DNA of 64,000 nucleotides from the sequence record MH051916. One strand, given 5' to 3'. Position numbers and translations under genes: made by a program. Source of the stretch: Enterobacteria phage vB_EcoM_IME340. This document shows, in pieces, positions 7,712-28,385 of the stretch (positions are counted from its first letter, which is position 1; each line of letters begins with the position of its first letter). The notes below the pieces were generated by a model. That model had not been told where the DNA came from, ran no database searches, and saw nothing but the letters and a program-made list of their open reading frames with translations.

Positions 7712-8347
7712 ATGTCTAAAGTAACTTACATCATCAAAGCTTCTAACGATGTTCTGAATGAAAAAACTGCTGCGATTTTAATTACCATTGCTAAGAAAGA
7801 TTTCATTACAGCTGCAGAAGTTCGTGAGGTGCATCCAGATTTAGGTAACGCAGTAGTTAATAGTAATATTGGGGTATTGATTAAAAAAGGCCTGGTGGAG
7901 AAATCTGGTGATGGATTAATCATTACTGGTGAAGCTCAGGATATTATTTCAAATGCAGCAACTTTATACGCACAGGAAAACGCTCCTGAACTGTTGAAAA
8001 AACGAGCAACACGTAAAGCTCGCGAGATTACTTCCGATATGGAAGAAGATAAAGACTTCATGTTAAAACTTTTAGATGAAAATGGATTTGTTCTTAAAAA
8101 AGTTGAAACTTATCGTAGTAACTATCTCGCTATTTTAGAAAAACGCACTCACGGAATTCGTAATTTTGAAATTAACAACAATGGAAATATGCGAATTTTT
8201 GGATACAAAATGATGGAACATCATATTCAGAAATTTACTGATATCGGAATGTCATGTAAAATCGCTAAAAATGGTAATGTGTATCTTGACATTAAACGCT
8301 CGGCAGAAAACATTGAAGCTGTAATCACCGTAGCATCTGAACTGTGA
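7712..8347 (+). CDS. motA: middle-transcription activator MotA
   Basis: 211 aa as in T4 MotA. Confidence 0.9.
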   Translation: MSKVTYIIKASNDVLNEKTAAILITIAKKDFITAAEVREVHPDLGNAVVNSNIGVLIKKGLVEKSGDGLIITGEAQDIISNAATLYAQENAPELLKKRATRKAREITSDMEEDKDFMLKLLDENGFVLKKVETYRSNYLAILEKRTHGIRNFEINNNGNMRIFGYKMMEHHIQKFTDIGMSCKIAKNGNVYLDIKRSAENIEAVITVASEL

Positions 8348-8357
8348 GGAATAAATA

Positions 8358-8687
8358 ATGAACAAGTTAGAAATTATCAATGAACTTCGTCGTTGTGCAG
8401 AACCCACTCAAGAGGGGTGGGATATCTGGTACCACGGAGCTTATCTTGGAACTATCGTAAAGATTAAGACTGGCAAATACATGATTATTCGTGAAAGTAA
8501 AGATGCTCCAGTAGGTATTCGCAATAATTTCATGGCAGCGATAAGTTCCTTTACAGATTCAGCTTACGAAATTTACCTTGCTGATTATAAAGAATTCCAG
8601 GAATCTCAACCAGTTATTCGCTCAATTGGTGTTAACAAAGCTCAACAGAAAACTTTGTGGCAACGTATTAAAGGATGGTTTAAATGA
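8358..8687 (+). CDS. hypothetical protein (arn.x position)
   Basis: 109-aa ORF, translationally coupled to next ORF. Confidence 0.45.
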
Positions 8688-10005: not shown

Positions 10006-10154
10006 GTCATAATCTTGAAATGGTAATCGAGCATAATATAGCTCAGGAACGTGAGTCGTTCAAGGAATTCGTAGAAAAAATTTTTGAAGAAAACAACACA
10101 GATCAGTTTACAAATCAAGCGTCTGATGATATTATAATAAAGTCAACTAATTGA
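10002..10154 (+). CDS. small acidic hypothetical protein
   Basis: 50-aa ORF, ATGA overlap with arn stop. Confidence 0.3.
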   Translation: MSHNLEMVIEHNIAQERESFKEFVEKIFEENNTDQFTNQASDDIIIKSTN

Positions 10155-10166
10155 GTGGTATAGTTA

Positions 10167-10439
10167 ATGAATAAAAACATTGATACAGTTCGTGAAATTA
10201 TTACTGTTGCATCTATTTTGATTAAATTTTCCAGAGAAGATATTGTTGAGAATCGTGCTAATTTTATTGCATTTCTGAATGAGATTGGAGTAACGCATGA
10301 AGGTAGAAAGTTAAATCAGAATTCATTCCGTAAAATTGTTTCTGAATTAACCCAAGAAGATAAGAAAACCCTCATCGACGAATTCAACGAGGGTTTTGAG
10401 GGTGTATATCGATATCTAGAGATGTATACAAACAAATAA
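10167..10439 (+). CDS. asiA: anti-sigma70 factor AsiA
   Basis: 90 aa as in T4 AsiA. Confidence 0.85.
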   Translation: MNKNIDTVREIITVASILIKFSREDIVENRANFIAFLNEIGVTHEGRKLNQNSFRKIVSELTQEDKKTLIDEFNEGFEGVYRYLEMYTNK

Positions 10440-11096
10440 TTATTTAGCCCTTCCTAATATTCTGGCCGCCTGAGAACATATTGATTCAAGGCGGTCATTA
10501 CTTATATGATCATTTCTATACCAGTACATGGTTATCGTTCCAGCATAGATATTATCCAAATTAAAATATGGACAACTGTACATGTAGTTTATTTCGGGAG
10601 TAGGCTTTTTAGTTGGTAAAAAAGCAAATTTTGAGTTGGAATAATAATGACGTCCATTTAAATGAACTGTATATTCATCCATAGTTTTATCAACAGGATA
10701 TCCTCCAAGTGATTTTTCGCTTATTGTTGAAGGTAATTTTCCTTCATATGCTATAATATCAACAAAATAGTTTAAGTTTTTAGGGCGGAAAGAATACACC
10801 GCACTAAAGTCTGCCTCAGATGATATATGAACTATCTGGAGTTGTTCCAGGGCGACAGATTCAAAGCGTGCATTTCTTTCCTTTTCAATAATTTCACTGT
10901 ATGTTTCATACTTTGATTGCTTATAGTACTCAAAGAAACTATCTCCCCTATACCAAACAATCGCCATTATAAACAAAAGAATTACGACAGCTACTCGGGA
11001 AGCAAGAACCTTCCCGGTAGCGTTATCTTTGAACAAGCGATCTAGAACACCCAACAGAATATCAGAGGGCGAAAATGATATTCTAGGTGCTGCCAT
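10440..11096 (-). CDS. t: holin T
   Basis: 218 aa, N-terminal TM segment plus large periplasmic domain, as T4 holin. Confidence 0.9.
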   Translation of the reverse strand: MAAPRISFSPSDILLGVLDRLFKDNATGKVLASRVAVVILLFIMAIVWYRGDSFFEYYKQSKYETYSEIIEKERNARFESVALEQLQIVHISSEADFSAVYSFRPKNLNYFVDIIAYEGKLPSTISEKSLGGYPVDKTMDEYTVHLNGRHYYSNSKFAFLPTKKPTPEINYMYSCPYFNLDNIYAGTITMYWYRNDHISNDRLESICSQAARILGRAK

Positions 11097-11126
11097 AGAC
11101 CCTCCTTTTAAGGATATTTATTCAAA

Positions 11127-11906
11127 TTATACTCTTGGACCATATATTGCTCCAACGTTTTGCCATGTCGGTGTAGACCCTATGACGGCATAACCAGCAG
11201 CACCACCGTTATATTCTGTACCGTTCCCATGAATATTACATCTACCTCCTGCTGAGCCAACTTCACCGCCATTCCCGCCTGTATATACCCAAAGAGACCC
11301 CTCACCGACAGATCCTGCACCCGGAGCGGAAATGGTGCCAGCGGTTGCACCAGCACCCATATGAGAGGAAGACCCGCCAGCACCGAATGGGCGACCACCA
11401 CCACCACCAAATGATAGTCTACCGTAGTTACCGCCGCCGCCGCCACCGCCGCCGCCTGCAATAGCTCCACCATTATTAATTCTTAGTCTCCCACCAATAT
11501 CGTTTTGAATACAATGACCTCCAGCTGAGCCAGGACTATTGCTACCGCCATTACCGCCACGTCCATACATCGTTACGCCGTGTATATTCAACTGAACATA
11601 TTCATTCGGTGTATCTCCGTACATGAAGAATAAAGGAACATCTTTAGAATATGATACTAAATCTCCAGTGATATTAAACACTATAGGTGTACTACCTGCC
11701 TCAAAACATCTATCTCGGAACCATTGACCATTGAAGTTATGGTCTGCTCCAAGTGTATGAATAATTTCTCTTGAGCGACCTGCAAATTGACTCATCCAGC
11801 AAGGAACACCCAATCTTAATTGACCAGCTGCTTGACTCATCCAGCGCTGACCCGTTTCATTTACGGCTGAACTTCCAATCCAGCCAGGAACTCCAACTAC
11901 TGCCAT
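11127..11906 (-). CDS. 38: gp38 receptor-binding adhesin, T2-type, with glycine-rich motifs
   Basis: 259 aa with poly-Gly tracts ([23 protein letters not shown]) typical of T2/K3/S16-type gp38 adhesins; not the 183-aa T4 chaperone type. Confidence 0.85.
11398..11457 (-). repeat. GGN codon triplet repeat encoding poly-Gly tract in gp38
   Basis: + strand reads (CCA)4...(CCG/CCA)9, near-perfect trinucleotide repeat. Confidence 0.7.
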
Positions 11907-11942
11907 AATTTATACTCCAAAGGGGGCATTTCCCCCTTGTTG

Positions 11943-14900
11943 TTAGAATTTAAAATATTTACTAATTTTGCGAGCAATTTTAGTAAAGAGAGGCGTTTTC
12001 AATTCTTTAATTTCTTCACTCATTTCCTGAATAGCCTTAATTAAAAGAGCATTCACTGTAGAGTTAGAAATTGTTAAAATCTCTTCTGGGTTATCAAGAG
12101 ATCCGACATTAGAAGTGCTAACAGCTTCCGGTAAAATTTCTTGTAAATCCTGCGCGATAATACCAATCTCATGTGCGATGACTTCTCGGTCAGAAAGAGA
12201 CTTAACTTTATCGTAGGTTTTAACTTTTAGTTTATTTACCTTATCTACCGCATTTTCTTCGTAGTCTTCAACGTTAATTTTCAGACGACGGTCGGAACGA
12301 ATATAAACATCGTTACAGTAAACCGACGCACTAGATGTGAAATCACCATTTGCAGCCCATGAATACCAGCCGCCTTTGTTCATATGCATCATTACGGTAG
12401 CTTGACCACCGCCAGCATGAACACCCATTGCCGCAAGATGATCAACACCCCAATGAGTTGCTTTCCAAATTGAATATGCTCGGGTATGTGAATCCTGACA
12501 ATCTAAGAGAATACCAGCAGGACGGTTGCGCCAGTCATCCCAAGCACCACCAAAAACATCACCACGGATAAGAGCGTATTCACTATTATAAGGAACTTGC
12601 TCTCCCGCTTTAATCATTGCACCCTGGAAGTGATGACTAAATGAACCCCCATGATTATTTCGTATATGTAAAATACCCTCATCTGTAGCCCAGATAACAG
12701 CCTTTTCTGCATCGCTATCATCTCTAAACCAGATATGGCGAGCACCAGTTGAGTTTTTGATGGTTATTCCGCTAGGTCCATGCACGGTCAAAGAACCAGC
12801 AACATCAAACATCAAACTGTTATCTGTCCTGCGTTCAGCATAGAAGTGATAACCTTTTGAATCGCCGACTTCCAATACTGCCGCGCGACCAACTTCTGAA
12901 TTTCCCCAATTGTTGATAGAGAATCGTTCAGAGCTATTATTCATCTGATTTAGGTATAATGTACCATCAGTGAATGTTTCGCCAAAGAAACGAGTTTTAA
13001 TTGCACCTGTCGCTAAAGTACGTTCAGTGGAAAAATGGGCGCCTTGACTATCTTCTAACTGGATGATGTTATCACGAGCGTTATTGCTATCACCCCAATG
13101 GTTAAATTTAAAATAATCTCGTGATCCTAAACGTCCGGCGTCAAAAGTCATCAAGCCTTTCATGTTAATATCACCGCCGACCAGAACGTTATCCGGGAAG
13201 TTAACTGTACCATCAGCATTAAATCTTGATGTATGGCCCTGTGTTCCATCTTCTTTGATATGGTGTATCACGAATGTACCTGAATTAATTTCAGTACCTA
13301 AAGACCAAACTGCTTTACCTTGAAGGTATTTTTGCTTAACAATCGGATAATATTTGTTTACAGCATCATCATCGATTTCCTGGAAAATAGGAGCCGCTTG
13401 AACATATTGAATATCATAACCACCAGCGCCAGCGCCATGACCAACAAATTTAATATAGCCGTTCGCAGCGAACGTATTGTAACTTGATTGTAAATCTGGA
13501 ATAGTAACTTTACCGGTATCTAAAGCCATACTAAACGGGCGAAGTGGACCGATATCGCCATGTTTACCTTCACCATAAGCAGTTGGAATAATATGAAGAC
13601 TGCCTTCTGAACGTCTAAAAATAGCTCCATAATCTGCGTTCCAAATGCGAAGACCATTTACAGCATTTGTCGCGATTTCACCGGCTGCGCTGATTGTACC
13701 GTCAAATGTAGCATTTTTTACTACTGTAAAGTTTTCATTAACAATCTGGGTGCCATTTATAACCGATTCGATTTTACCCGCAGTTGTTCGTTGAATATAA
13801 TGCATCCATCCAATATCATCAGAAATTTCCATGACATTTTTACGGGTGCCTTCACTTGGATTAGTAAAAGTATTTCCCCAAACAGCTATATACATGTTAT
13901 CAACGGAGCTTTGACCCATGGTATAGCCTTTAAACATTAAAGTTGAATTATTATTTCTACCATCAATATTAACCGAACCACCAATAACGTCAATATTGCC
14001 TGGAGTAACTAACAAACCGCCATGAGTATTAATGTTTGTGGTACCCTTACCGCGGAAATAGTGATGATAGTTACCGCCTTGATAATATCCTAAAAGAGTT
14101 TGACCGTCACCATACGCGTTATTATCATGGTAAGTAACAACAGTGGCTAATGCATAGTTTTCTGTCGGTGGCGTTGTCATAAGAATCCCATCCGGAGAAT
14201 AACCCATAACCATTTTTCTAAGGCTTTGTGTTTCCGCAGGACCGTAAATGAAAGTTCTTGTTCCGTTGTTTACTGCATGAAAATATCCGTCCTGATGCCA
14301 TTTAAATCCGGTATCATTATCGCCAATAGCAATAGAACCTTTACCTAAGGCTGAATATGTCATAGGACTTGATTCCATACCTACTGCAATTGAATGGCCT
14401 GCTTGAAGCCCACCGGAATAAGAAAATGACAACATGTAATCAGTAGGGGTTGAACCAGAATACCAACTGATGCCGTTATTTTCACAAATTTCATGGAGCA
14501 TTGCGGCCGCTGGGTCGGTACGTACAATGCGCAAATAGTTTTTATCTGTGTCAGAATTATTATTTGCTAATGAAGATATATCATAATCGCCCGTCTTCTT
14601 CCCATCTGTAATAACTTTATCGGTCAGAATTTGTGGAGACGAAATAGATTTCCATGCTGATACTTCAGGTGAAGTAAATAGGCCACTGCCTGAAAATGCA
14701 TAGGTGCTTTCATCACCAGCGGCGTAGTCTTGAACCCTGATATTAAGTACTTGTGTAGTTAATCCATCATTAGCCGGGGCATAAATTATTCCGCGTTCGC
14801 GGTTATTGCCATCGAAAAAACGAACATGCGCTGTACCTGAACTTTTTGTAATAAGTTCTCCGCCCTCAGTCATAATCTGCCCGGCGGCAATAATATCGCG

Positions 14901-15185
14901 AGTTACTCGAGCAATACCAGTTAAATTAAAATTACCTGTCTGAGTGAAAGCGCCATTTAAAGTATAATCACCAGTTTGATTATAGTTTCCTATATGAATA
15001 ACATTCCCGTCAATGCTACCGCCCTTAGCAAAACCAAGATCAATGATATTTCCTTGGTCGTCTTTAGTAAAAAGTACGCGGTCTTTTAAGTTTATAGCCA
15101 ATTCACCTTCGGCTAATACTGAAGCGGCAGGACGTGCTCCTGCAGTTTTGCTTCTTTTAAATTGTATTTGTTTTAAAGTAGCCAT
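11943..15185 (-). CDS. 37: long tail fibre distal subunit gp37 with C-terminal intramolecular-chaperone (S74-like) domain
   Basis: 1080 aa; conserved T-even gp37 N-terminus (MATLKQIQFKRSK); C-terminal ~117 aa begins SDRRLKINVEDYE, resembling self-cleaving chaperone domains. Confidence 0.88.
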   Translation of the reverse strand: MATLKQIQFKRSKTAGARPAASVLAEGELAINLKDRVLFTKDDQGNIIDLGFAKGGSIDGNVIHIGNYNQTGDYTLNGAFTQTGNFNLTGIARVTRDIIAAGQIMTEGGELITKSSGTAHVRFFDGNNRERGIIYAPANDGLTTQVLNIRVQDYAAGDESTYAFSGSGLFTSPEVSAWKSISSPQILTDKVITDGKKTGDYDISSLANNNSDTDKNYLRIVRTDPAAAMLHEICENNGISWYSGSTPTDYMLSFSYSGGLQAGHSIAVGMESSPMTYSALGKGSIAIGDNDTGFKWHQDGYFHAVNNGTRTFIYGPAETQSLRKMVMGYSPDGILMTTPPTENYALATVVTYHDNNAYGDGQTLLGYYQGGNYHHYFRGKGTTNINTHGGLLVTPGNIDVIGGSVNIDGRNNNSTLMFKGYTMGQSSVDNMYIAVWGNTFTNPSEGTRKNVMEISDDIGWMHYIQRTTAGKIESVINGTQIVNENFTVVKNATFDGTISAAGEIATNAVNGLRIWNADYGAIFRRSEGSLHIIPTAYGEGKHGDIGPLRPFSMALDTGKVTIPDLQSSYNTFAANGYIKFVGHGAGAGGYDIQYVQAAPIFQEIDDDAVNKYYPIVKQKYLQGKAVWSLGTEINSGTFVIHHIKEDGTQGHTSRFNADGTVNFPDNVLVGGDINMKGLMTFDAGRLGSRDYFKFNHWGDSNNARDNIIQLEDSQGAHFSTERTLATGAIKTRFFGETFTDGTLYLNQMNNSSERFSINNWGNSEVGRAAVLEVGDSKGYHFYAERRTDNSLMFDVAGSLTVHGPSGITIKNSTGARHIWFRDDSDAEKAVIWATDEGILHIRNNHGGSFSHHFQGAMIKAGEQVPYNSEYALIRGDVFGGAWDDWRNRPAGILLDCQDSHTRAYSIWKATHWGVDHLAAMGVHAGGGQATVMMHMNKGGWYSWAANGDFTSSASVYCNDVYIRSDRRLKINVEDYEENAVDKVNKLKVKTYDKVKSLSDREVIAHEIGIIAQDLQEILPEAVSTSNVGSLDNPEEILTISNSTVNALLIKAIQEMSEEIKELKTPLFTKIARKISKYFKF

Positions 15186-15193
15186 AAGTCCTC

Positions 15194-15850
15194 TTAATAA
15201 TAGCCGAAATCTTGAACAGAATCCTTAATAACAATTTGATCAAATCGTGGAACATGTGAAGGTTGAGATGCAGGATTCTGCGAAAAAAGGTTTGGCGCAG
15301 TTAAATTTCCTGTCATAGTATCTCCAGAGCGTAATACCCTAGAGTTTGCGTTTGCTGTAACAATATTTATTGCTCCATCAACATAATCTTTCCGTGTAAG
15401 GTCATAATTATTTACTGGAGATAATGAAGTTGCGCGTATTTGTGATGCTTCAATTACACCCTTTGAGCTAATATCTCCATTTCGCGTGTTAATTACTACA
15501 GTTCTACCCGCTGAACCCTGTGATGATTTAAAACCAATACCATACCACGAAACAATATCCATATTTGTAGTATCATATGTGGCATTATCACCAGGACCAG
15601 CAAAAATACCGTTGTCACCTGACCCTGCACCAGGAACAGTCATTCCTTTATTAAAAATTACTTTATTTAAATACGTACCACCGTTAGCTTTAGAAACGAA
15701 ATCGTTATCAGCAGCTTGTGGCTTATTATATTCTGAATATATTTTAAATGATTTATAGAGTACATCGTCACCGGCTGGATTCAATGGAAAATTTCCTTGA
15801 TGCCAAATGACAGAGCCTCCAGTTGTTGAACCTACTTTTAAATCAGCCAT
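15194..15850 (-). CDS. 36: long tail fibre hinge/distal connector gp36
   Basis: 218 aa, position between 35 and 37. Confidence 0.8.
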   Translation of the reverse strand: MADLKVGSTTGGSVIWHQGNFPLNPAGDDVLYKSFKIYSEYNKPQAADNDFVSKANGGTYLNKVIFNKGMTVPGAGSGDNGIFAGPGDNATYDTTNMDIVSWYGIGFKSSQGSAGRTVVINTRNGDISSKGVIEASQIRATSLSPVNNYDLTRKDYVDGAINIVTANANSRVLRSGDTMTGNLTAPNLFSQNPASQPSHVPRFDQIVIKDSVQDFGYY

Positions 15851-15873
15851 TGTATGCCCCTTTATTTTAATAG

Positions 15874-15881
15874 TATTTATA
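15874..15881 (-). promoter_or_regulatory. late promoter (TATAAATA) for genes 36-37-38
   Basis: + strand TATTTATA about 25 nt upstream of gene 36 start. Confidence 0.6.
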
Positions 15882-15907
15882 AAGAAAAAGGGAACCCGAA
15901 GGCTCCC
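15880..15907 (-). terminator. UUCG-tetraloop hairpin and U-rich tract after gene 35
   Basis: on - strand GGGAGCC-UUCG-GGUUCCC then CUUUUUCUUU. Confidence 0.55.
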
Positions 15908-15912
15908 TCAAT

Positions 15913-17031
15913 TTATACTTCTCTAAATTCTTGCCCAAATACTTTACCAGCTTTAGACGATGCTTGCGTAGGAAGTACCATTATATCCGGAGGTGAAGCA
16001 GATTCACAGATATAATTAACACGAATGCCGTTGATACCAAATTCAGCAGGTTTCGAAATACTTCCATTTCTTGACACTTCCGAAAAGCTTAAATTCCTCA
16101 TGCCACCTTGACCAGCTTGAGCAGTTCTTTGTGCATATATCGTAAATCCTACTGCATTTTCTGGAATAACTACATAATCTTCCTTTAATTCCCATGACCC
16201 AGCTTGTCCAGTAAACTCAGCATGTGTTGAAGAAATATATCCATTTGATGCATCATAAAAACGAATGGATATATTTGTAGTTCCAAGATCAAGTAAATCA
16301 GCATCAGCATATAACTGTGCTTTAAGATAAAGAACATCACCAGGAATTAAATTATAATCAGATAGTTTACTTATAGCAGCTGAAGTTGGTAATCGCGCAA
16401 TTTCGTTATTAGTTCCACCAACTGCTGACATAAATTGCTCGACACTTTCATATGTTCTTTTAGGAAATCCTGTAGCTCCGACGTCTTCTAAACTATCAAA
16501 TACAACATCTAAAATAGTTTGATAGTCATCTGTGCTTTTTCTATTACTTAGTTTAACATGTTCCAATGCAATAGCTCTTTTAGAAGAAGTATAAAAGGCA
16601 GCATATGATACGTCAAATCTTGACAATACAGAATCAGATGGAAAAGCAGACGTTCCTGCGGTTCTTATCCAAGATACTACCTCAGGAGGAAAATTAACTT
16701 TTCCGTTAGTTAATATAGCAACAAGTCTATTATTCGTCAAAGAGTTCATGAAACCAACAAAAGCAGCTGATGTAGTATCATTTGAAGCCGAAAAAGCATA
16801 TGACTTACTATCAACTAATGCTCCTGTAGAAGGGTCAAAAACTCTTAAATGAAGTCCTGCGCTAAATGTTTGACTTCCAACAGGATTATCCTGAAATTTA
16901 ACGTATGGTCCTTCTGCAGTAGAAAGCGGGCAAGAACCCGCTATACTTATTTTATATCTTACTGAATTGCTTTCCGATAAAAATGGCGTTTGGACATATC
17001 CTTGTCCAAACTCTGCCATAAATTTTTCCAT
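15913..17031 (-). CDS. 35: long tail fibre hinge protein gp35
   Basis: 372 aa as in T4 gp35. Confidence 0.8.
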   Translation of the reverse strand: MEKFMAEFGQGYVQTPFLSESNSVRYKISIAGSCPLSTAEGPYVKFQDNPVGSQTFSAGLHLRVFDPSTGALVDSKSYAFSASNDTTSAAFVGFMNSLTNNRLVAILTNGKVNFPPEVVSWIRTAGTSAFPSDSVLSRFDVSYAAFYTSSKRAIALEHVKLSNRKSTDDYQTILDVVFDSLEDVGATGFPKRTYESVEQFMSAVGGTNNEIARLPTSAAISKLSDYNLIPGDVLYLKAQLYADADLLDLGTTNISIRFYDASNGYISSTHAEFTGQAGSWELKEDYVVIPENAVGFTIYAQRTAQAGQGGMRNLSFSEVSRNGSISKPAEFGINGIRVNYICESASPPDIMVLPTQASSKAGKVFGQEFREV

Positions 17032-17039
17032 AATACCTC

Positions 17040-20000
17040 TTATTCAACCCATTCAAATTTAACCGTTTTATTCACTGGGTCAGGAATAATGCGAACATTA
17101 CCAATTCGTAAGAAATCACGAATAGTAAGATTCCCCATTATAGCATTATCAGATGGTAAAGCACCGATATCAGATGGCTGAGGAGGGTTACCTCCATCAA
17201 ATACCTGAACAAAGCTTGACCAAGAATTTTTGGTTTTCTGCCATGTGCGTGTCCAGCGAGTGGTGCGCGCTTCTGGGGTCGTTGGATAAGTAATCCAATC
17301 TTGATAAAGCGAATCGAGTGTGTTACCAAACTGAGTCAATGTACCAGGAGATTTAACTTCTTCGCCACGTTCTAAGTATGGAAGTCCAGTCACTTCATTA
17401 GTCTTTTCAACCATTTTAAAATAACCCGGGAACTGGTTATAAGTGGCTGAATCATTAATATCGATTGACCAGAATCCTACAGTATCAGATGTTGGCGCAC
17501 GGGTATATAAATCAGAGGTTTTAGTACCCTGAGAACGAATTCTCGAGTTAACAGTTAAACCACCTGAAGTTATAGTAGCACCTTTGGCAATGATTAAGCT
17601 TTCACCAATTGTAACCTGACCAGATTGATTATTAATTGATAATGGACGTAATCCATTAAACCCACCAGTCTGATCACCAGATGCAGTAAGCATAAAATAG
17701 GTGTTAGCACCATCATTACGAATAAAGAATCCGTAATCACCATTTATTGCTCTAAAAGCATTCGACGATTTACTGATAAATTCGCCATTAGCAGTAACTG
17801 AACTACCGAATGTTGCAACGCCATTCGCATTCAATGTTCCTGAAGCATTCACATTTATCGGTGTTACTGTACCATTGATATTAAATGTTATATTACCAGC
17901 TTTATTGCGCTGAGAATAAAAGTGACTAGACGTTTCATCACTAACTTCAAATACAGTAGAACGCGTTGTGTCTGATTCACCACTAAATTGATTTCCCCAC
18001 ACTTTGACTGTCATCGTTTGAGCCGGGTTCGTTCCAGTTTGAGGTCCTTTCTCAAAAATCAGACGAGTTGCTGTTCCAGTATTAGAAATGGTTAGTGTAC
18101 TATTTGCTGAAACTGATCCACCGAACGTAGCAGTACTAGATGATACAAGAGGGGCACTCAGATTCGTTTGTTGGGTTAAGGTTAGTGAACCATTAACCGT
18201 TTGTGCAATATCCCTACGAATGAACTGAGATGAATCTAGACCATCCAGTAAATTACTATCTACAGCTTTTGCTTTTAACGGCAAATAATTTGCTAATACA
18301 CGGTTTAATTCGTATGGCGATACTGCATAACTATTTTTCTCGTACAATTCTAATGACTGTGTTGAACCAACTGTATCATTACCAACGAATGTAATTGAAC
18401 CAGATGAAGTTTTAACAAAACCTCTTACCAGAGTAGTAGCTGCCCAAGTAGGTTCACTCTGCACAATCCATTTTAAATTTTTTGGAGATACAGCAGTATT
18501 TGCTGACGTTCCAGTTACAGTTTCAGACTGAGTTGCAACTTTAATAACGCCTTCCTGCGCTTCAGTAGATTTAGTACCTAAAAGCTTTTTAGGAGTTATT
18601 AGAACATTATCTAATGTTCCTGCAGCAGCTTCAACTTGCGTAGCTACACGAAGTGTACCACGTTGTGTCTCATTTGCTTCAAGAATATTGAGGGTATAAT
18701 GGTCCCAGAGAGTTCCTGATTCAACTAATCCAGATAGAGCAACAACAGAAGTACGATCAGTACTGTTAAATCTGGTTTTAATTTTTAATGGTGTAGAGAT
18801 ACGAGTATCGTCGACGCCTGCGTCGAATTCAACTTGTGTAGCAATTTCAGCTATACCACTTAAACTTTCAGTTGCTCTACGGTCATTTAAAGTTTTAGGA
18901 GTGACTGCACGGGTATAATCAGTTCCTGTATTAACTTCACTTTGCGTAGCAATTTCAATTAAACCAATTCTTGCATCAGTTGATGTCTTTTTATGTAACG
19001 TTTCTGGCGTTACAACCGCATTTGCCCATCCTTCTTGACTCTGTCCAGCAATTACTTCACTTTCAACTGCTAAAATTACTGCACCTTGTTGGGTTGGAGT
19101 AGCTTTATACTGATCCAAAGCTTTAGGCGAAACAACTAAATTATTAGTGTTTTTATTATAAACGTTTGTACCATTTAATTCACGGCTAGAAGCTGGAGTA
19201 GCTCCTGTAGTAGATACAAAGGTTACAATACCAGATAATGATTCAGAACCTTGTCGAGCTTGAAGCTTTTTAGGAGTGATGATTGTAGTATCATCAGTAC
19301 CTGCGTTAGTTTCTTGCTGCGTCGCAATTTCAGCAACGCCTCTACGAGTTTCTGTGGCAGTTCTTTCATTCAGCTTTTTAGGAGTGACGATAATATCATC
19401 AGCAAAAGAGAATGTAGTATCCTGGTTCACTTGGGCAGTAGTTGCTATTCTTGCGATACCTCTACGAGTTTCTGTAGCAGTACGGTTAGCTAATGTTTCT
19501 GGAGTAATTGCTAATTCTTTTTGCGGAGAATTTTCTAAATCAGCATTTGCTTGAGCTTGTGTAGCTAAAGCAATTACGCCTAATCTTGCTCTAGTAGAAT
19601 CATTTAAAGAATCAACTCTTTCAACTGTTGGCACGTTTTGCTGCACCACCCAGTATTTTCCATCAGAATCTTCTATATAAGCAAGCTGTAAAACTGGAAC
19701 ATAATTGGTTTCGCCGTTAAAAACTAATTCTTGAACAGTCACCCATTCAGCTTCAGGTGGATATTCTGAACGTTTTGGGAATTGCAGCAATTGAACTGAA
19801 GAAGCAATTTTATCTTCACCAGCAGCTTTGATTTTAACTGTTTGTCCTTTTCTCATATAATTCATGGAAATTTTAACAGTATCACCAATGGAAATATCGG
19901 TTGGAAGCTGAAGTTCAATTGTTTGGGTTGTTCCGTTATTCGCTCCAAATACCATAACTTCTTCATTTGGACGAATACTAGAATTAGTTGTTATAATACG

Positions 20001-20909
20001 TAAACGTGCTTTACTATCCCCGTCAAACAATCTCCACAATTTTTCATTATCATCATACATCAAGAAACCATCAATCGATGTACGGCCTTCAATGGAATGA
20101 GTTCCAACTTCTTGCACTGAAGTTGTTTCATCGTATGTAGTAACAATTGTATGATAAAGTGGATTTAATTTGTCTAAATCGACGAAATTAATAATATCGC
20201 CATGATTAGCAAATCTCGGAAGTTTAATATTAATCGCCGCGGCTGAAGTAAATCTGCGCACGATAAAATCGTTAGATTGCGCCTGATAGAGACTTGCCGG
20301 TGTTACAACTACAGCTTCTCTGCTATAATCAGCAACATACATTTGCCACAGACGATTACTAAAAATTAAAACTATCTGTGATTTTGGATGAGTCATTAGT
20401 ACTGAACGTACTTGCTGACCTCTAAAATTTACAATGCTTTGTACCGGAGCTGTAATTAAAACTTGGTTAACTCCAGGTTTTCCTCCAATGTCTTGGAGAA
20501 CGATAGTATCACCGTCAATTGGAGTAGATGGTAAAGTAAATGTAATGTCATTACCAGCTGCAGTATCAACTGAAATTGATTCACCTGACTTTAATTGATA
20601 AGGTCCTGATGAAACAGTTGTCCAGTTTGCATCGGTACGTAACGCTCTCCATCGTACGCTATTAAAAGCTCCTGCTGGTTTTGGAATATCATTTATAGCA
20701 GCCCAAAAGCGGTTATCATAAATGATTACAAAATCTTTTAAATATCCACGAGTTGGATCGTATTGTTGAACTGTGTTTTCTTGAATTAAGTAATCAACGT
20801 TAACACCGTCAGTTCCTACGGCACGATCAGCTAAAGCTACGTTGATTATTTTATCGCCACCTGCGTCCAGACCGTCTTCTGCTCTGAACTTTCTTTTAAT
20901 CTCGGCCAT
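17040..20909 (-). CDS. 34: long tail fibre proximal subunit gp34
   Basis: 1289 aa as in T4 gp34; internal repeated TPKKL-x-TATETRRG beta motifs. Confidence 0.9.
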   Translation of the reverse strand: MAEIKRKFRAEDGLDAGGDKIINVALADRAVGTDGVNVDYLIQENTVQQYDPTRGYLKDFVIIYDNRFWAAINDIPKPAGAFNSVRWRALRTDANWTTVSSGPYQLKSGESISVDTAAGNDITFTLPSTPIDGDTIVLQDIGGKPGVNQVLITAPVQSIVNFRGQQVRSVLMTHPKSQIVLIFSNRLWQMYVADYSREAVVVTPASLYQAQSNDFIVRRFTSAAAINIKLPRFANHGDIINFVDLDKLNPLYHTIVTTYDETTSVQEVGTHSIEGRTSIDGFLMYDDNEKLWRLFDGDSKARLRIITTNSSIRPNEEVMVFGANNGTTQTIELQLPTDISIGDTVKISMNYMRKGQTVKIKAAGEDKIASSVQLLQFPKRSEYPPEAEWVTVQELVFNGETNYVPVLQLAYIEDSDGKYWVVQQNVPTVERVDSLNDSTRARLGVIALATQAQANADLENSPQKELAITPETLANRTATETRRGIARIATTAQVNQDTTFSFADDIIVTPKKLNERTATETRRGVAEIATQQETNAGTDDTTIITPKKLQARQGSESLSGIVTFVSTTGATPASSRELNGTNVYNKNTNNLVVSPKALDQYKATPTQQGAVILAVESEVIAGQSQEGWANAVVTPETLHKKTSTDARIGLIEIATQSEVNTGTDYTRAVTPKTLNDRRATESLSGIAEIATQVEFDAGVDDTRISTPLKIKTRFNSTDRTSVVALSGLVESGTLWDHYTLNILEANETQRGTLRVATQVEAAAGTLDNVLITPKKLLGTKSTEAQEGVIKVATQSETVTGTSANTAVSPKNLKWIVQSEPTWAATTLVRGFVKTSSGSITFVGNDTVGSTQSLELYEKNSYAVSPYELNRVLANYLPLKAKAVDSNLLDGLDSSQFIRRDIAQTVNGSLTLTQQTNLSAPLVSSSTATFGGSVSANSTLTISNTGTATRLIFEKGPQTGTNPAQTMTVKVWGNQFSGESDTTRSTVFEVSDETSSHFYSQRNKAGNITFNINGTVTPINVNASGTLNANGVATFGSSVTANGEFISKSSNAFRAINGDYGFFIRNDGANTYFMLTASGDQTGGFNGLRPLSINNQSGQVTIGESLIIAKGATITSGGLTVNSRIRSQGTKTSDLYTRAPTSDTVGFWSIDINDSATYNQFPGYFKMVEKTNEVTGLPYLERGEEVKSPGTLTQFGNTLDSLYQDWITYPTTPEARTTRWTRTWQKTKNSWSSFVQVFDGGNPPQPSDIGALPSDNAIMGNLTIRDFLRIGNVRIIPDPVNKTVKFEWVE

Positions 20910-20943: not shown

Positions 20944-20951
20944 TATTTATA
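20944..20951 (-). promoter_or_regulatory. late promoter (TATAAATA) for gene 34
   Basis: + strand TATTTATA ~35 nt upstream of gene 34 start. Confidence 0.6.
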
Positions 20952-23175: not shown

Positions 23176-23183
23176 TTGCTTAT

Positions 23184-23191
23184 TATAAATA
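23184..23191 (+). promoter_or_regulatory. late promoter TATAAATA upstream of gene 32
   Basis: exact TATAAATA. Confidence 0.5.
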
Positions 23192-23208
23192 AATTATAAT
23201 TATCTCAC

Positions 23209-23274
23209 TGACCAGCTATGAGGTCATACATCGTCATAGCACCAACTGTTAATTAAATTAAAAAGGAAATAAAA
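23209..23274 (+). promoter_or_regulatory. gene 32 autogenous translational operator (pseudoknot plus unstructured AU-rich leader)
   Basis: TGACC-AGCTATGA-GGTCA...TCATAGC pseudoknot pairing, then UUAAAUUAAAAAGGAAAUAAAA before ATG. Confidence 0.75.
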
Positions 23275-24285: not shown

Positions 24286-24328
24286 ACAACTATCGGCAAT
24301 ACTGCTGATGATTAAAGAGGAAAATAAT

Positions 24329-24556
24329 ATGGCTAAAATTGATATTGATGTTGTTGATTTTGAATATATTGAAGAAATTATTCGTAATCGTTATCCTGAA
24401 CTTAGTATCATAAGCGCACTAAATGATCCTAATTGTAATGTTTCAGTTGTTATTGAAGGTCCTTTAAATCGTCTTAAACAGTTTATGGTTAATGAATACT
24501 GCGACGGTATGGATGCTGAAGATGTAGAATTTTACACAGGATTTATTGAACAGTAA
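24329..24556 (+). CDS. hypothetical protein (frd.x position)
   Basis: 75 aa from ATG with AAAGAGGAAAA SD. Confidence 0.4.
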
Positions 24557-24601
24557 TTATCAAGGGGCTATTATAGCCCCTATTAAAATGAGGAAAACAC
24601 A

Positions 24602-24961
24602 ATGTATATCGGTAAAAAGTATGAACTTGTTCCAAGACTTATTGATACATTTATTAATTATCGTCCACGTTCTAATTCAGCAATAGTTAAAATTATTCAA
24701 GAAAATGGCGGATGGTTTGAAGTTAAAGAAGCTTTCTTTGTTGATGGATTTAGAGTAATAAAACACATTGAATGCGCAAATGGAAAGCATTTTTACTTTA
24801 ACGTTTGTGAAGACGAATTTCATTGTTTTCGTGAGTATAAAGAACCGACTTCTGAAGAAGACGAATACCTAGTTTCTGGCGTAACGAAAATTCACTGCAT
24901 TGTAGACGAAAACAATGTAGATGAAATTATTGAACTTTTGCGAAAAACTTTCAAAAAGTAG
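24602..24961 (+). CDS. hypothetical protein (frd.x position)
   Basis: 119-aa ORF with GAGGAAA SD. Confidence 0.45.
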   Translation: MYIGKKYELVPRLIDTFINYRPRSNSAIVKIIQENGGWFEVKEAFFVDGFRVIKHIECANGKHFYFNVCEDEFHCFREYKEPTSEEDEYLVSGVTKIHCIVDENNVDEIIELLRKTFKK

Positions 24962-26508: not shown

Positions 26509-27057
26509 ATGAAACAATACCAAGATTTAATTAAAGACATTTTTGAAAATGGCTATGAAACTGATGACCGAACAGGCACAGGAACAATTGCTTTGTTCGG
26601 TACTAAATTACGCTGGGATTTAACTAAAGGTTTTCCTGCAGTAACAACTAAGAAGCTCGCCTGGAATGCATGCATTGCTGAGCTACTTTGGTTTTTATCA
26701 GGAAGCACAAATGTCAATGATTTACGATTAATTCAGCATGATTCATTAATTCAAGGCAAAACAGTCTGGGATGAAAATTACGAAAATCAAGCAAAAGATT
26801 TAGGATACCATAGCGGTGAACTTGGTCCAATTTATGGAAAACAGTGGCGTGATTTTGGTGGTGTAGACCAAATTATAGAAGTTGTTGATCGTATTAAAAA
26901 ACTGCCAAATGATAGGCGTCAAATTGTTTCAGCATGGAATCCAGCTGAACTTAAATATATGGCATTACCGCCTTGTCATATGTTCTATCAGTTTAATGTG
27001 CGTAATGGCTATTTGGATTTGCAGTGGTATCAACGATCAGTAGATGTTTTCTTGGGT
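26509..27057 (+). CDS. td: thymidylate synthase, exon 1
   Basis: 183 codons ending ...VDVFLG at a U before in-frame TAA; classic TS motifs. Confidence 0.92.
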
Positions 27058-28073
27058 TAATTGAGGCCTGAGTATAAGGTGACTTATACTTGTAATCTAT
27101 CTAAACGGGGAACCTCTCTAGTAGACAATCCCGTGCTAAATTGTAGGACTGCCCTTTAATAAATACTTCTATATTTAAAGAGGTATTTATGAAAAGCGGA
27201 ATTTATCAGATTAAAAATACTTTAAACAATAAAGTATATGTAGGAAGTGCTAAAGATTTTGAAAAGAGATGGAAGAGGCATTTTAAAGATTTAGAAAAAG
27301 GATGCCATTCTTCTATAAAACTTCAGAGGTCTTTTAACAAACATGGTAATGTGTTTGAATGTTCTATTTTGGAAGAAATTCCATATGAGAAAGATTTGAT
27401 TATTGAACGAGAAAATTTTTGGATTAAAGAGCTTAATTCTAAAATTAATGGATACAATATTGCTGATGCAACGTTTGGTGATACATGTTCTACGCATCCA
27501 TTAAAAGAAGAAATTATTAAGAAACGTTCTGAAACTGTTAAAGCTAAGATGCTTAAACTTGGACCTGATGGTCGGAAAGCTCTTTACAGTAAACCCGGAA
27601 GTAAAAACGGGCGTTGGAATCCAGAAACCCATAAGTTTTGTAAGTGCGGTGTTCGCATACAAACTTCTGCTTATACTTGTAGTAAATGCAGAAATCGTTC
27701 AGGTGAAAATAATTCATTCTTTAATCATAAGCATTCAGACATAACTAAATCTAAAATATCAGAAAAGATGAAAGGTAAAAAGCCTAGTAATATTAAAAAG
27801 ATTTCATGTGATGGGGTTATTTTTGATTGTGCAGCAGATGCAGCTAGACATTTTAAAATTTCGTCTGGATTAGTTACTTATCGTGTAAAATCTGATAAAT
27901 GGAATTGGTTCTACATAAATGCCTAACGACTATCCCTTTGGGGAGTAGGGTCAAGTGACTCGAAACGATAGACAACTTGCTTTAACAAGTTGGAGATATA
28001 GTCTGATCTGCATGGTGACATGCAGCTGGATATAATTCCGGGGTAAGATTAACGACCTTATCTGAACATAATG
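27058..28073 (+). ncRNA. self-splicing group I intron of td (1016 nt)
   Basis: starts TAATTGAGGCCTGAGTATAAGG after exon GGGT, ends ...ACATAATG (terminal G); exon 2 resumes in frame; length equals T4 td intron. Confidence 0.88.
27189..27926 (+). CDS. I-TevI: GIY-YIG homing endonuclease I-TevI (intron-encoded)
   Basis: 245 aa, GIYQIKN...VYVGSA GIY-YIG motif, C-terminal zinc finger and DNA-binding domain. Confidence 0.92.
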   Translation: MKSGIYQIKNTLNNKVYVGSAKDFEKRWKRHFKDLEKGCHSSIKLQRSFNKHGNVFECSILEEIPYEKDLIIERENFWIKELNSKINGYNIADATFGDTCSTHPLKEEIIKKRSETVKAKMLKLGPDGRKALYSKPGSKNGRWNPETHKFCKCGVRIQTSAYTCSKCRNRSGENNSFFNHKHSDITKSKISEKMKGKKPSNIKKISCDGVIFDCAADAARHFKISSGLVTYRVKSDKWNWFYINA

Positions 28074-28385
28074 CTACCGTTTAATATTGCATCATATGCT
28101 ACGTTAGTTCATATTGTAGCTAAGATGTGTAATCTTATTCCAGGAGATTTGATATTTTCTGGCGGTAATACTCATATCTATATGAATCACGTAGAACAAT
28201 GTAAAGAAATTTTGCGTCGTGAACCTATGGATTTATGCGAATTACAATTAAAATTTCCAGATGAATTTGATGAATGGGACACAGAATCACAGGTATTTTG
28301 GTTGAGTCAATTCGCAAAGCCGCATAATTTTGTTCTTAACAACTATGTATCTCACCCGCCAATTAAAGGAAAGATGGCGGTGTAA
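28074..28385 (+). CDS. td: thymidylate synthase, exon 2
   Basis: LPFNIASYATLVH... continues TS frame; total 286 aa. Confidence 0.92.
   Translation, partial: LPFNIASYATLVHIVAKMCNLIPGDLIFSGGNTHIYMNHVEQCKEILRREPMDLCELQLKFPDEFDEWDTESQVFWLSQFAKPHNFVLNNYVSHPPIKGKMAV

Follow-up and report, generated by a model that had tools for sequence, protein, structure and literature searches.

What kind of long-tail-fiber tip does Enterobacteria phage vB_EcoM_IME340 carry, how did the genes encoding it come together, and what would that tip recognize? These questions are raised by genes 38 and 37, which lie at positions 11127–15185 (4059 nt) of the 64,000-nt stretch of sequence record MH051916 analyzed here (the window). 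A first-pass annotation of this DNA had described a T2-type receptor-recognition module—that is, a gp38 adhesin plus a self-cleaving gp37 tip—exchanged as a cassette into an otherwise T4-colinear backbone. Judged by homology, the locus is an ordinary T2-type tail-fiber tip of a T4-like coliphage (Tequatrovirus), and we hold with high confidence the explanation as a whole: a T2-type tip with a self-cleaved gp37 and a gp38 cap, probably directed at OmpA and encoded by a mosaic module. No evidence against this tip architecture was found.

Identity of the gp38 Adhesin and the gp37 Chaperone Domain

The product of gene 38 matches PF05268 (GP38; 5e-69, 232.9 bits, cut-off 25) with residues 47–259 over profile positions 1–218 of 218, and PF21721 (Gp38_N; 1.1e-20, 73.8 bits, cut-off 25) with residues 1–42. 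Its sequence also matches two entries in PDB, namely 9V85 (5.3e-78), the receptor-binding domain of PP01 gp38 (PMC12892980), and 6F45_D (3.1e-53), the gp38 of phage S16, and homology to these solved structures points to a polyglycine-II sandwich fold. Glycine accounts for 25% of the protein and for 35% of residues 116–259, with runs of nine (G9, residues 151–159) and five (G5, residues 167–171), and the GGN codons are reflected in a GC content of 0.50 at 11000–11499. In an alignment of 12 sequences, the conserved glycine blocks flank variable loops. Comparison by blastp with the T4 gp38 chaperone (183 aa) gave no match at E<1e-3; with this and the GP38 family match, the description of gp38 as a glycine-rich adhesin of 259 residues, and not the T4 chaperone, is borne out. 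Homologs of the adhesin were found in 813 phage records, and the protein is 100% identical in phages LYE-01, vB_EcoM_SP1 (SP1), and vB_EcoM_JE01 (JE01). Within the Gp38_N match lie W9, W22, and W37, which are kept in T2, T6, T4_ev240 (EV240), FL12, and FL20; the N-terminus is the same as that of T6 and EV240 and differs from the T2/FL12 subtype.

The 1080-residue gp37 ends in a Peptidase_S74 domain, with residues 964–1022 matching PF13884 (2.9e-14, 53.5 bits, cut-off 22) over profile positions 1–57 of 58. The domain forms the extreme C-terminus of the fiber protein, its last 117 residues, and this C-terminus matches the intramolecular chaperone (IMC) chain of S16 gp37, 6F45_A, at 1.7e-10. The domain of about 117 residues that the first-pass annotation had likened to self-cleaving chaperones is thus confirmed as a member of that family. 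From S964 onward gp37 carries SDRRLKINVEDYEE, with 117 residues remaining to the C-terminus, and its translation holds CNDVYIRSDRRLKINVEDYEE. Serine, the putative nucleophile, is the first residue of the domain and lysine lies five residues downstream (S964-D-R-R-L-K969, an SDxxxK motif), in alignment with the SDRRIK of the auto-cleaved S16 domain; DVYIRSD-RLK is invariant across seven diverged gp37 C-termini.

The gp37 of T2 and that of T6 have an S74 C-terminus as well (3.3e-15 and 6.6e-10, respectively), and both phages have a GP38 gene between 37 and t. T4 gp37, by contrast, contains Collar and fiber-repeat domains and no S74 domain, and binds the receptor itself; none of these Collar and fiber-repeat domains was found by Pfam in the gp37 of vB_EcoM_IME340. 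Because T2 and T6 gp37 carry S74 whereas T4 gp37 is without it, and because T4 gp38 is unrelated, the locus is T2-type rather than T4-type, the former being a term in use in the field (PMC12892980). The Pfam matches of t, gp38, and the gp37 C-terminus are all far above the curated cut-offs, and on these scores chance is excluded as an explanation of the T2-type identity. The label describes architecture, not sequence: gp38 is 50% identical to that of T2, which has the other attachment subtype and the receptors OmpF/FadL, and 82.5% identical to that of T6, which has the same attachment subtype and loops of the Tsx type. T2 gp37 (1341 aa) is only ~31–33% identical. Along gp37, residues 1–642 are 35% identical to T4, with a Gp34_trimer-like domain at residues 446–552; beyond residue ~642, similarity to T4 is absent except for a 30-aa patch. 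Identity to EV240 gp37 reaches 89% over residues 668–1080, and that to FL33 gp37 is 86% over the full length.

Mosaic Structure and Origin of the Module

Homology to T4 DNA ends at 11121, in the spacer between t and 38, and resumes at 14999, at about codon 62 of gene 37, so that the breakpoints against T4 that the first-pass annotation had called for can be placed; on the right, similarity resumes at 15039 for T2 and 15031 for T6. The first ~62 residues of gp37 are conserved in T4, and this N-terminal part is 77% identical to T6 at the amino acid level. Identity to T4, T2, and T6 is 95.9, 95.6, and 96.1% on the left flank and 93.4, 93.8, and 93.7% on the right flank. T4 has the same locus and flanking genes, with gp34, gp35, and t being 94–99% identical (94, 95, and 98.6%, respectively), but gp36 only 80.5% (61% to T6). 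The backbone therefore keeps the gene order of T4, as had been claimed, but shows equal similarity to T4, T2, and T6, and its gp36 has diverged too.

The nearest relatives of the 4059-nt region are LYE-01 (PQ303785; 99.9% DNA identity) and vB_EcoM_NBG2 (NBG2; MH243439/NC_054925; 99.1%). Both share the gene order t-38-37-36-35-34, and both are only ~97% identical to the window outside 10121–17246. Within this 7.1-kb segment, a mismatch map showed five differences from LYE-01, as against 2–4% in the flanks, where identity to deposited phages reaches ~97% at best. The segment is the footprint of a recent exchange with the LYE-01/NBG2 lineage. Three of the five differences (11442, 11445, and 11448) are synonymous and fall at the third positions of consecutive glycine codons within the gp38 G9 run; slippage in the poly-GGN tract or gene conversion there may have produced them, or they may be a sequencing ambiguity.

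Other parts of the module are shared with other partners. An identical run with JE01 extends over 10400–12047, broken only at 11442–11448 and 11754–11757, and covers t, gp38, and the last ~46 residues of gp37. FL33, an OmpF phage, is identical over 11691–12782 (gp38 residues 1–72 plus gp37 residues ~802–1080), and Salmonella phage pSe_SNUABM_01 shares a run at ~13087–14948, with three single mismatches, covering gp37 residues ~80–700. In EV240 gp37, the C-terminal 413 residues are 89% identical and the N-terminal 640 residues are unrelated. Since the separate identical runs have different partners, the module is a mosaic in which three or more segments circulate independently of one another: the loop half of gp38, the gp38 N-terminus together with the gp37 C-terminus, and the gp37 shaft are each found in other combinations. 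Co-travel of the gp38 N-terminus with the gp37 C-terminus, as seen here, is predicted by lock-and-key pairing (Trojet et al.). Thus the proposed exchange is visible in the identity step and in the T4 breakpoints, but what was exchanged is at least three sub-segments rather than one cassette.

Placing a T2 module in a T4 backbone implies a polarity that is probably reversed, T4 being the atypical lineage. The gp38-adhesin form is the majority among T-even phages and in the T4 superfamily (PMC3157838; PMC6851490), so that T4 is the exception and vB_EcoM_IME340 is not a hybrid. In its full form, the corresponding explanation dispenses with import altogether: the adhesin/S74 tip would be ancestral and vertically inherited, and it would be the T4 lineage that exchanged its own tip for a lambda-Stf/Tfa-like gp37 end and the gp38 chaperone. 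We consider this fairly probable, and it agrees with the predominance of the adhesin form, with the 813 records holding a homolog, with a backbone equidistant from T4, T2, and T6, and with the S74 architecture common to T2 and T6. Vertical descent leaves unexplained, however, both the identity step against LYE-01/NBG2 and the 1.0–1.9-kb identical runs with FL33, JE01, and pSe_SNUABM_01. Such patterns call for recent recombination among adhesin-type phages; an ancestral tip and the exchange of its segments are therefore compatible.

Gene 34 is also patchy. Twelve mismatches to LYE-01 occur at 17247–17499, followed by near-identity to ~18400, and patches of the gene are only 75–88% identical to T4, T2, and T6, the patchy areas being 17247–17500, 17701–18300, and 20401–20700. 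This pattern suggests further recombination junctions within gene 34.

Prediction of the Receptor

Loop similarity in gp38 has been reported to predict the receptor (Lutz et al., 2025, PMC12032242; 2026 RB-TnSeq preprint). EV240 uses OmpA by RB-TnSeq, and when its gp38 was transferred to phage CM8, the receptor of CM8 changed from Tsx to OmpA (2026 preprint); FL12 and FL20 are OmpA-dependent as well (PMC12032242). Receptor classes were compared over the receptor-binding half of gp38 (residues 105–259) in the 12-sequence alignment. The protein aligns with the OmpA binders EV240, FL12, and FL20 with 0 gap columns, at 93.5, 94.2, and 89.0% identity, as against 9–10 gap columns with the Tsx binders KarlGJung and T6 (82.5 and 78.3%), 17 with T2 gp38 (~50%), and 14–21 across the T2, SQ17, and pSe types. 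The gp38 proteins of EV240, FL12, and FL20 likewise have 259 residues, and identity to them over the full length is 96.1, 90.7, and 93.1%; since it still amounts to 88.6% for the Tsx phages JK23 and KarlGJung, overall identity is a poor guide, and it is loop architecture that separates the classes. By loop-length class and sequence, OmpA appears to be the most probable receptor, a prediction made with moderate confidence, and a contribution of lipopolysaccharide (LPS) to binding is possible.

Several observations weigh against OmpA. At four loop sites, five residues of gp38 (Y161, S193, W206, V207, and I225) depart from the R, Y, S, A, and T found at these positions in EV240, FL12, and FL20, and S193 and I225 are residues of the Tsx class; the loops of NBG2 gp38 (R161, Y193, S206/A207, and T225) are EV240-like and differ from those of vB_EcoM_IME340. 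A single substitution in a hypervariable segment (HVS) can switch the receptor, as in Q206L, which changed OmpF to OmpW (2026 preprint). Among the phages with identical gp38 (LYE-01, SP1, and JE01), experimental receptor data exist for SP1 only and are negative or ambiguous: a screen of K-12 mutants yielded no receptor, and adsorption was sensitive to periodate and insensitive to proteinase K (SP1 preprint). None of the three phages appears in the supplements of the 2026 receptor-prediction preprint.

These points could mean that this gp38 allele does not use OmpA, or not OmpA alone, and binds another porin, a non-K-12 variant of the OmpA loops, or LPS carbohydrate. We consider this possible but unlikely. 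The consistent difference from all three OmpA binders, the sharing of two residues with Tsx binders, the documented one-residue switches, the identity to JK23 and KarlGJung, and the lack of a Keio match together with the periodate sensitivity of SP1 all fit such a shift. The loop lengths, by contrast, are the same as in the OmpA class, including an HVS after the G9 run that is shorter by 5–6 residues and the four-residue GEGS insertion, two features in which Tsx binders differ. The SP1 preprint does not list the mutants in its screen and is silent on plating of SP1 on K-12. In addition, a step involving the short tail fibers and LPS could account for the periodate sensitivity. The OmpA barrel is protease-resistant in intact cells, and the proteinase K result is therefore weak evidence. 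Because the loops match those of OmpA binders without gaps, but four loop sites differ and the SP1 screen was negative, OmpA is likely, with uncertainty; the adhesin alignment suggested by the first-pass annotation thus assigned the loop lengths to the OmpA class and left five residues outside it.

Alternatively, and more tentatively still, the Y161/S193/W206-V207/I225 allele may be a natural specificity variant of an OmpA-class adhesin, although we think this doubtful. Among the phages examined, the allele is common only to LYE-01, SP1, and JE01, and, in near-identical form, to Pu-Krd-SF1. If the idea were true, the allele may have shifted to an LPS sugar, to a different variant of the OmpA loops, or to an outer-membrane protein other than OmpA, which would explain why no SP1 receptor was found with K-12 mutants and why the phages bearing the allele come mainly from pig-associated or enterotoxigenic (ETEC) E. 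coli.

Predicted Processing of gp37 and Assembly of the Tip

In Salmonella phage S16, the IMC consists of the C-terminal 113 residues of gp37 and is auto-cleaved at DLNVS/SDRRIKK after trimerization, exposing the docking surface for gp38; an equivalent site, DVYIR/SDGRLKI, has been proposed for Yersinia T4-like (fPS) phages (PMC7917993). Three conserved tryptophans of the N-terminal helices of gp38 insert into pockets of the gp37 tip in the S16 structure (PMC6851490; PMC7917993). For T2 and T6, proteolytic processing of gp37 followed by capping with gp38 is described in PMC3157838, citing Drexler et al. (1986). The S16 tip (PDB 6F45; Dunne et al., 2018) resembles that of vB_EcoM_IME340 in combining an attachment domain with a polyglycine-rich receptor-binding domain. 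The IMC of S16 likewise begins with S-D-R-R-x-K, whereas the residues upstream of the cleavage site (DLNVS as against DVYIR) and the gp38 loops differ. The receptor of S16 is Salmonella OmpC.

A profile built from the seven gp37 C-termini, searched against PDB, retrieved S16 gp37, the MYRF auto-processing domain 7DC3 (1.6e-5), and a tail fiber, 8JOV, with SDxxxK and GxIAQ..LP conserved in the weaker matches to MYRF and the phage tail-fiber chain. The domain shares its Ser-x4-Lys start, its GxIAQ..LP core, and a C-terminal helix with MYRF and with the endosialidase and T5 pb1 domains (PF13884), and, unlike in those proteins, sits on a T-even long-tail-fiber shaft. Two results leave the assignment short of support at the level of fold. 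First, the same search retrieved neither the endosialidase nor the T5 pb1 chains, so that the link to them is drawn through Pfam PF13884 only, and the profile comparison proposed in the first-pass annotation succeeded for S16, MYRF, and 8JOV but not for these chains. Second, a single-sequence AlphaFold2 (AF2) model of the domain had a pLDDT of 41 and a pTM of 0.24, making its predicted helices unreliable. That the domain is a degenerate S74 remnant, staying attached as a structural cap only, would accord with this model and with the predicted status of the cleavage, but is very improbable given that the Pfam model is matched from the start of the domain with Ser and Lys intact, that DVYIRSDxRLK is invariant in diverged gp37s, that auto-cleavage is established for the homologous domain of S16 and processing for T2 gp37, and that a retained domain would leave gp38 without a docking surface.

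The precedents in S16, fPS phages, and T2, taken together with DVYIR/SDRRLKI and with W9, W22, and W37, lead us to infer cleavage, release of 117 residues, and docking of gp38. By analogy with these homologs, gp37 would be made as a 1080-residue precursor, whose S74 domain of 117 residues would promote trimerization and folding of the β-helical end of the fiber. The domain would then cleave itself off between R963 and S964 by means of an S964/K969 dyad, freeing the 117 residues and exposing a flat DVYIR tip. A single gp38 would then cap this trimer tip, attached by its N-terminal three-helix domain (residues 1–42, with the three tryptophans), and its C-terminal half, a presumed polyglycine sandwich, would present the hypervariable loops to the outer-membrane receptor.

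Organization of the Locus

Coordinates are collected in Table 1. All ORF (open reading frame) positions given by the first-pass annotation were recovered, on the minus strand. Gene 38 is placed directly downstream of 37 and upstream of t, an order likewise found in T2, T6, NBG2, and EV240; the NBG2 record labels gene 37 "long tail fiber distal subunit" and gene 38 "tail fiber adhesin gp38." The T4 proteins measure 218 (t), 221 (gp36), 372 (gp35), 1289 (gp34), and 183 (gp38) residues, so the flanking genes have T4 lengths, as described, for t, 35, and 34, but not for gp36 (218 as against 221 aa).

Table 1. Features of the tail-fiber locus of vB_EcoM_IME340, in window positions.
Feature	Position	Strand	Basis or remark
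Gene t (holin)	10440–11096	minus	218 aa; PF11031 Phage_holin_T, 8.4e-118; conserved left flank
Gene 38, T2-type receptor-recognizing adhesin	11127–11906	minus	259 aa; Pfam and PDB matches
gp38 receptor-binding region (aa 116–259)	11130–11561	minus	hypervariable loops interspersed with glycine-rich motifs
gp38 N-terminal attachment domain (aa 1–42), T6-like subtype	11781–11906	minus	PF21721; W9, W22, W37
Perfect 5-bp GC hairpin GGGGGAAATGCCCCC (GGGGG-AAATG-CCCCC, coding strand)	11922–11935	minus	36-nt spacer between genes 37 and 38
Gene 37, distal long-tail-fiber subunit (precursor)	11943–15185	minus	1080 aa; NBG2 annotation at 99.1% DNA identity
gp37 intramolecular chaperone/Peptidase_S74 domain (aa 964–1080, 117 aa), predicted auto-cleaved	11946–12296	minus	PF13884
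Predicted cleavage site R963/S964 in DVYIR/SDRRLKI	12294–12299	minus	likeness to S16 and fPS-phage sites
Conserved gp37 N-terminus (~aa 1–62), putative junction with gp36	15000–15185	minus	T4/T2/T6 similarity resumes here
Gene 36, distal connector, partly diverged	15194–15850	minus	218 aa; PF03903, 7e-30
Candidate late promoter box of T4 type (TATAAATA), ahead of gene 36	15874–15881	minus	
Terminator-like hairpin after gene 35	15909–15888		annotated terminator in NBG2
Gene 35	15913–17031	minus	372 aa
Gene 34	17040–20909	minus	1289 aa; expected fiber family by Pfam
Second candidate TATAAATA box, upstream of gene 34	20944–20951	minus	
Block without T4 DNA homology (gene 38 and gene 37 codons ~63 to end)	11122–14998		blastn against T4 NC_000866; one 65-nt patch excepted
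7.1-kb segment near-identical to LYE-01	10121–17246		3′ part of asiA, t, 38, 37, 36, 35, last ~70 codons of 34

Boxes of the sequence TATAAATA number nine in the window, with 9.6 expected; since the count is not above chance, the promoter assignment for genes 36 and 34 rests on position. By analogy with homologs, the box ahead of gene 36 would drive late transcription of 36-37-38. The boxes and hairpins are presumably arranged in the same way in T4. The GC hairpin in the 37–38 spacer is followed by the Shine-Dalgarno sequence of gene 38, and may act in RNA stability or in translation. Scans with Rfam (gathering thresholds) and for tRNAs and tandem repeats gave no matches in or near the module. 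Three further ORFs—one of 97 residues in an alternative frame within gene 38 (11180–11473) and two antisense, at 15013–15228 and 15486–15758—were taken to be frame artefacts of the long genes. In gp35, residues 59–127 match PF15711, "Interleukin-like EMT inducer" (ILEI), at 1.2e-07 (32.6 bits, cut-off 27), an unexpected label for a tail-fiber hinge protein.

Other Features of the Backbone

Farther along the window, td (thymidylate synthase) appears to be split into exon-like ORFs at 26509–27060 and 28071–28385, with an insert whose 245-aa ORF (27189–27926) corresponds to I-TevI in size and position. T4 and T6 have this insert at 98.5–100% identity and T2 lacks it, with a gap spanning 27055–28080; Rfam at the gathering threshold gave no group I intron. 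The homing endonuclease gene segG, found in T4 between 59 and 32, is absent at 23177–23211, as in T2 and T6, and over 35 nt of the window the T4 similarity here skips directly from locus position 8543 to position 7919. The lowest backbone identity, 78–93% to all references including LYE-01, occurs at 24301–24900, downstream of gene 32 in the frd.3/frd.2 area, apparently a locally hypervariable stretch of small ORFs.

Significance

Earlier work has covered each element: the pair of genes, the S74 chaperone and the adhesin rich in glycine, the loop-based prediction of the receptor, and motif-mediated recombination. The sequence is virtually identical to GenBank entries, and the significance of the finding beyond correct annotation is small. 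Given the negative SP1 data, the five allele-specific loop residues may alter the receptor. For users of the phage, the gp38 loops set the host range, OmpA is the first receptor candidate, and the natural junctions—at gp38 residues ~72–118, at gp37 residues ~650–700 and ~1046, and in the gp37 N-terminus—indicate where engineered swaps would be tolerated. Recombination of this kind was reportedly documented by Tetart in 1998. It has since been documented by Trojet (2011) and in the gp38 papers of 2025–2026, and the module is one more natural example of recombination below the level of the gene in the tail-fiber loci of T-even phages.

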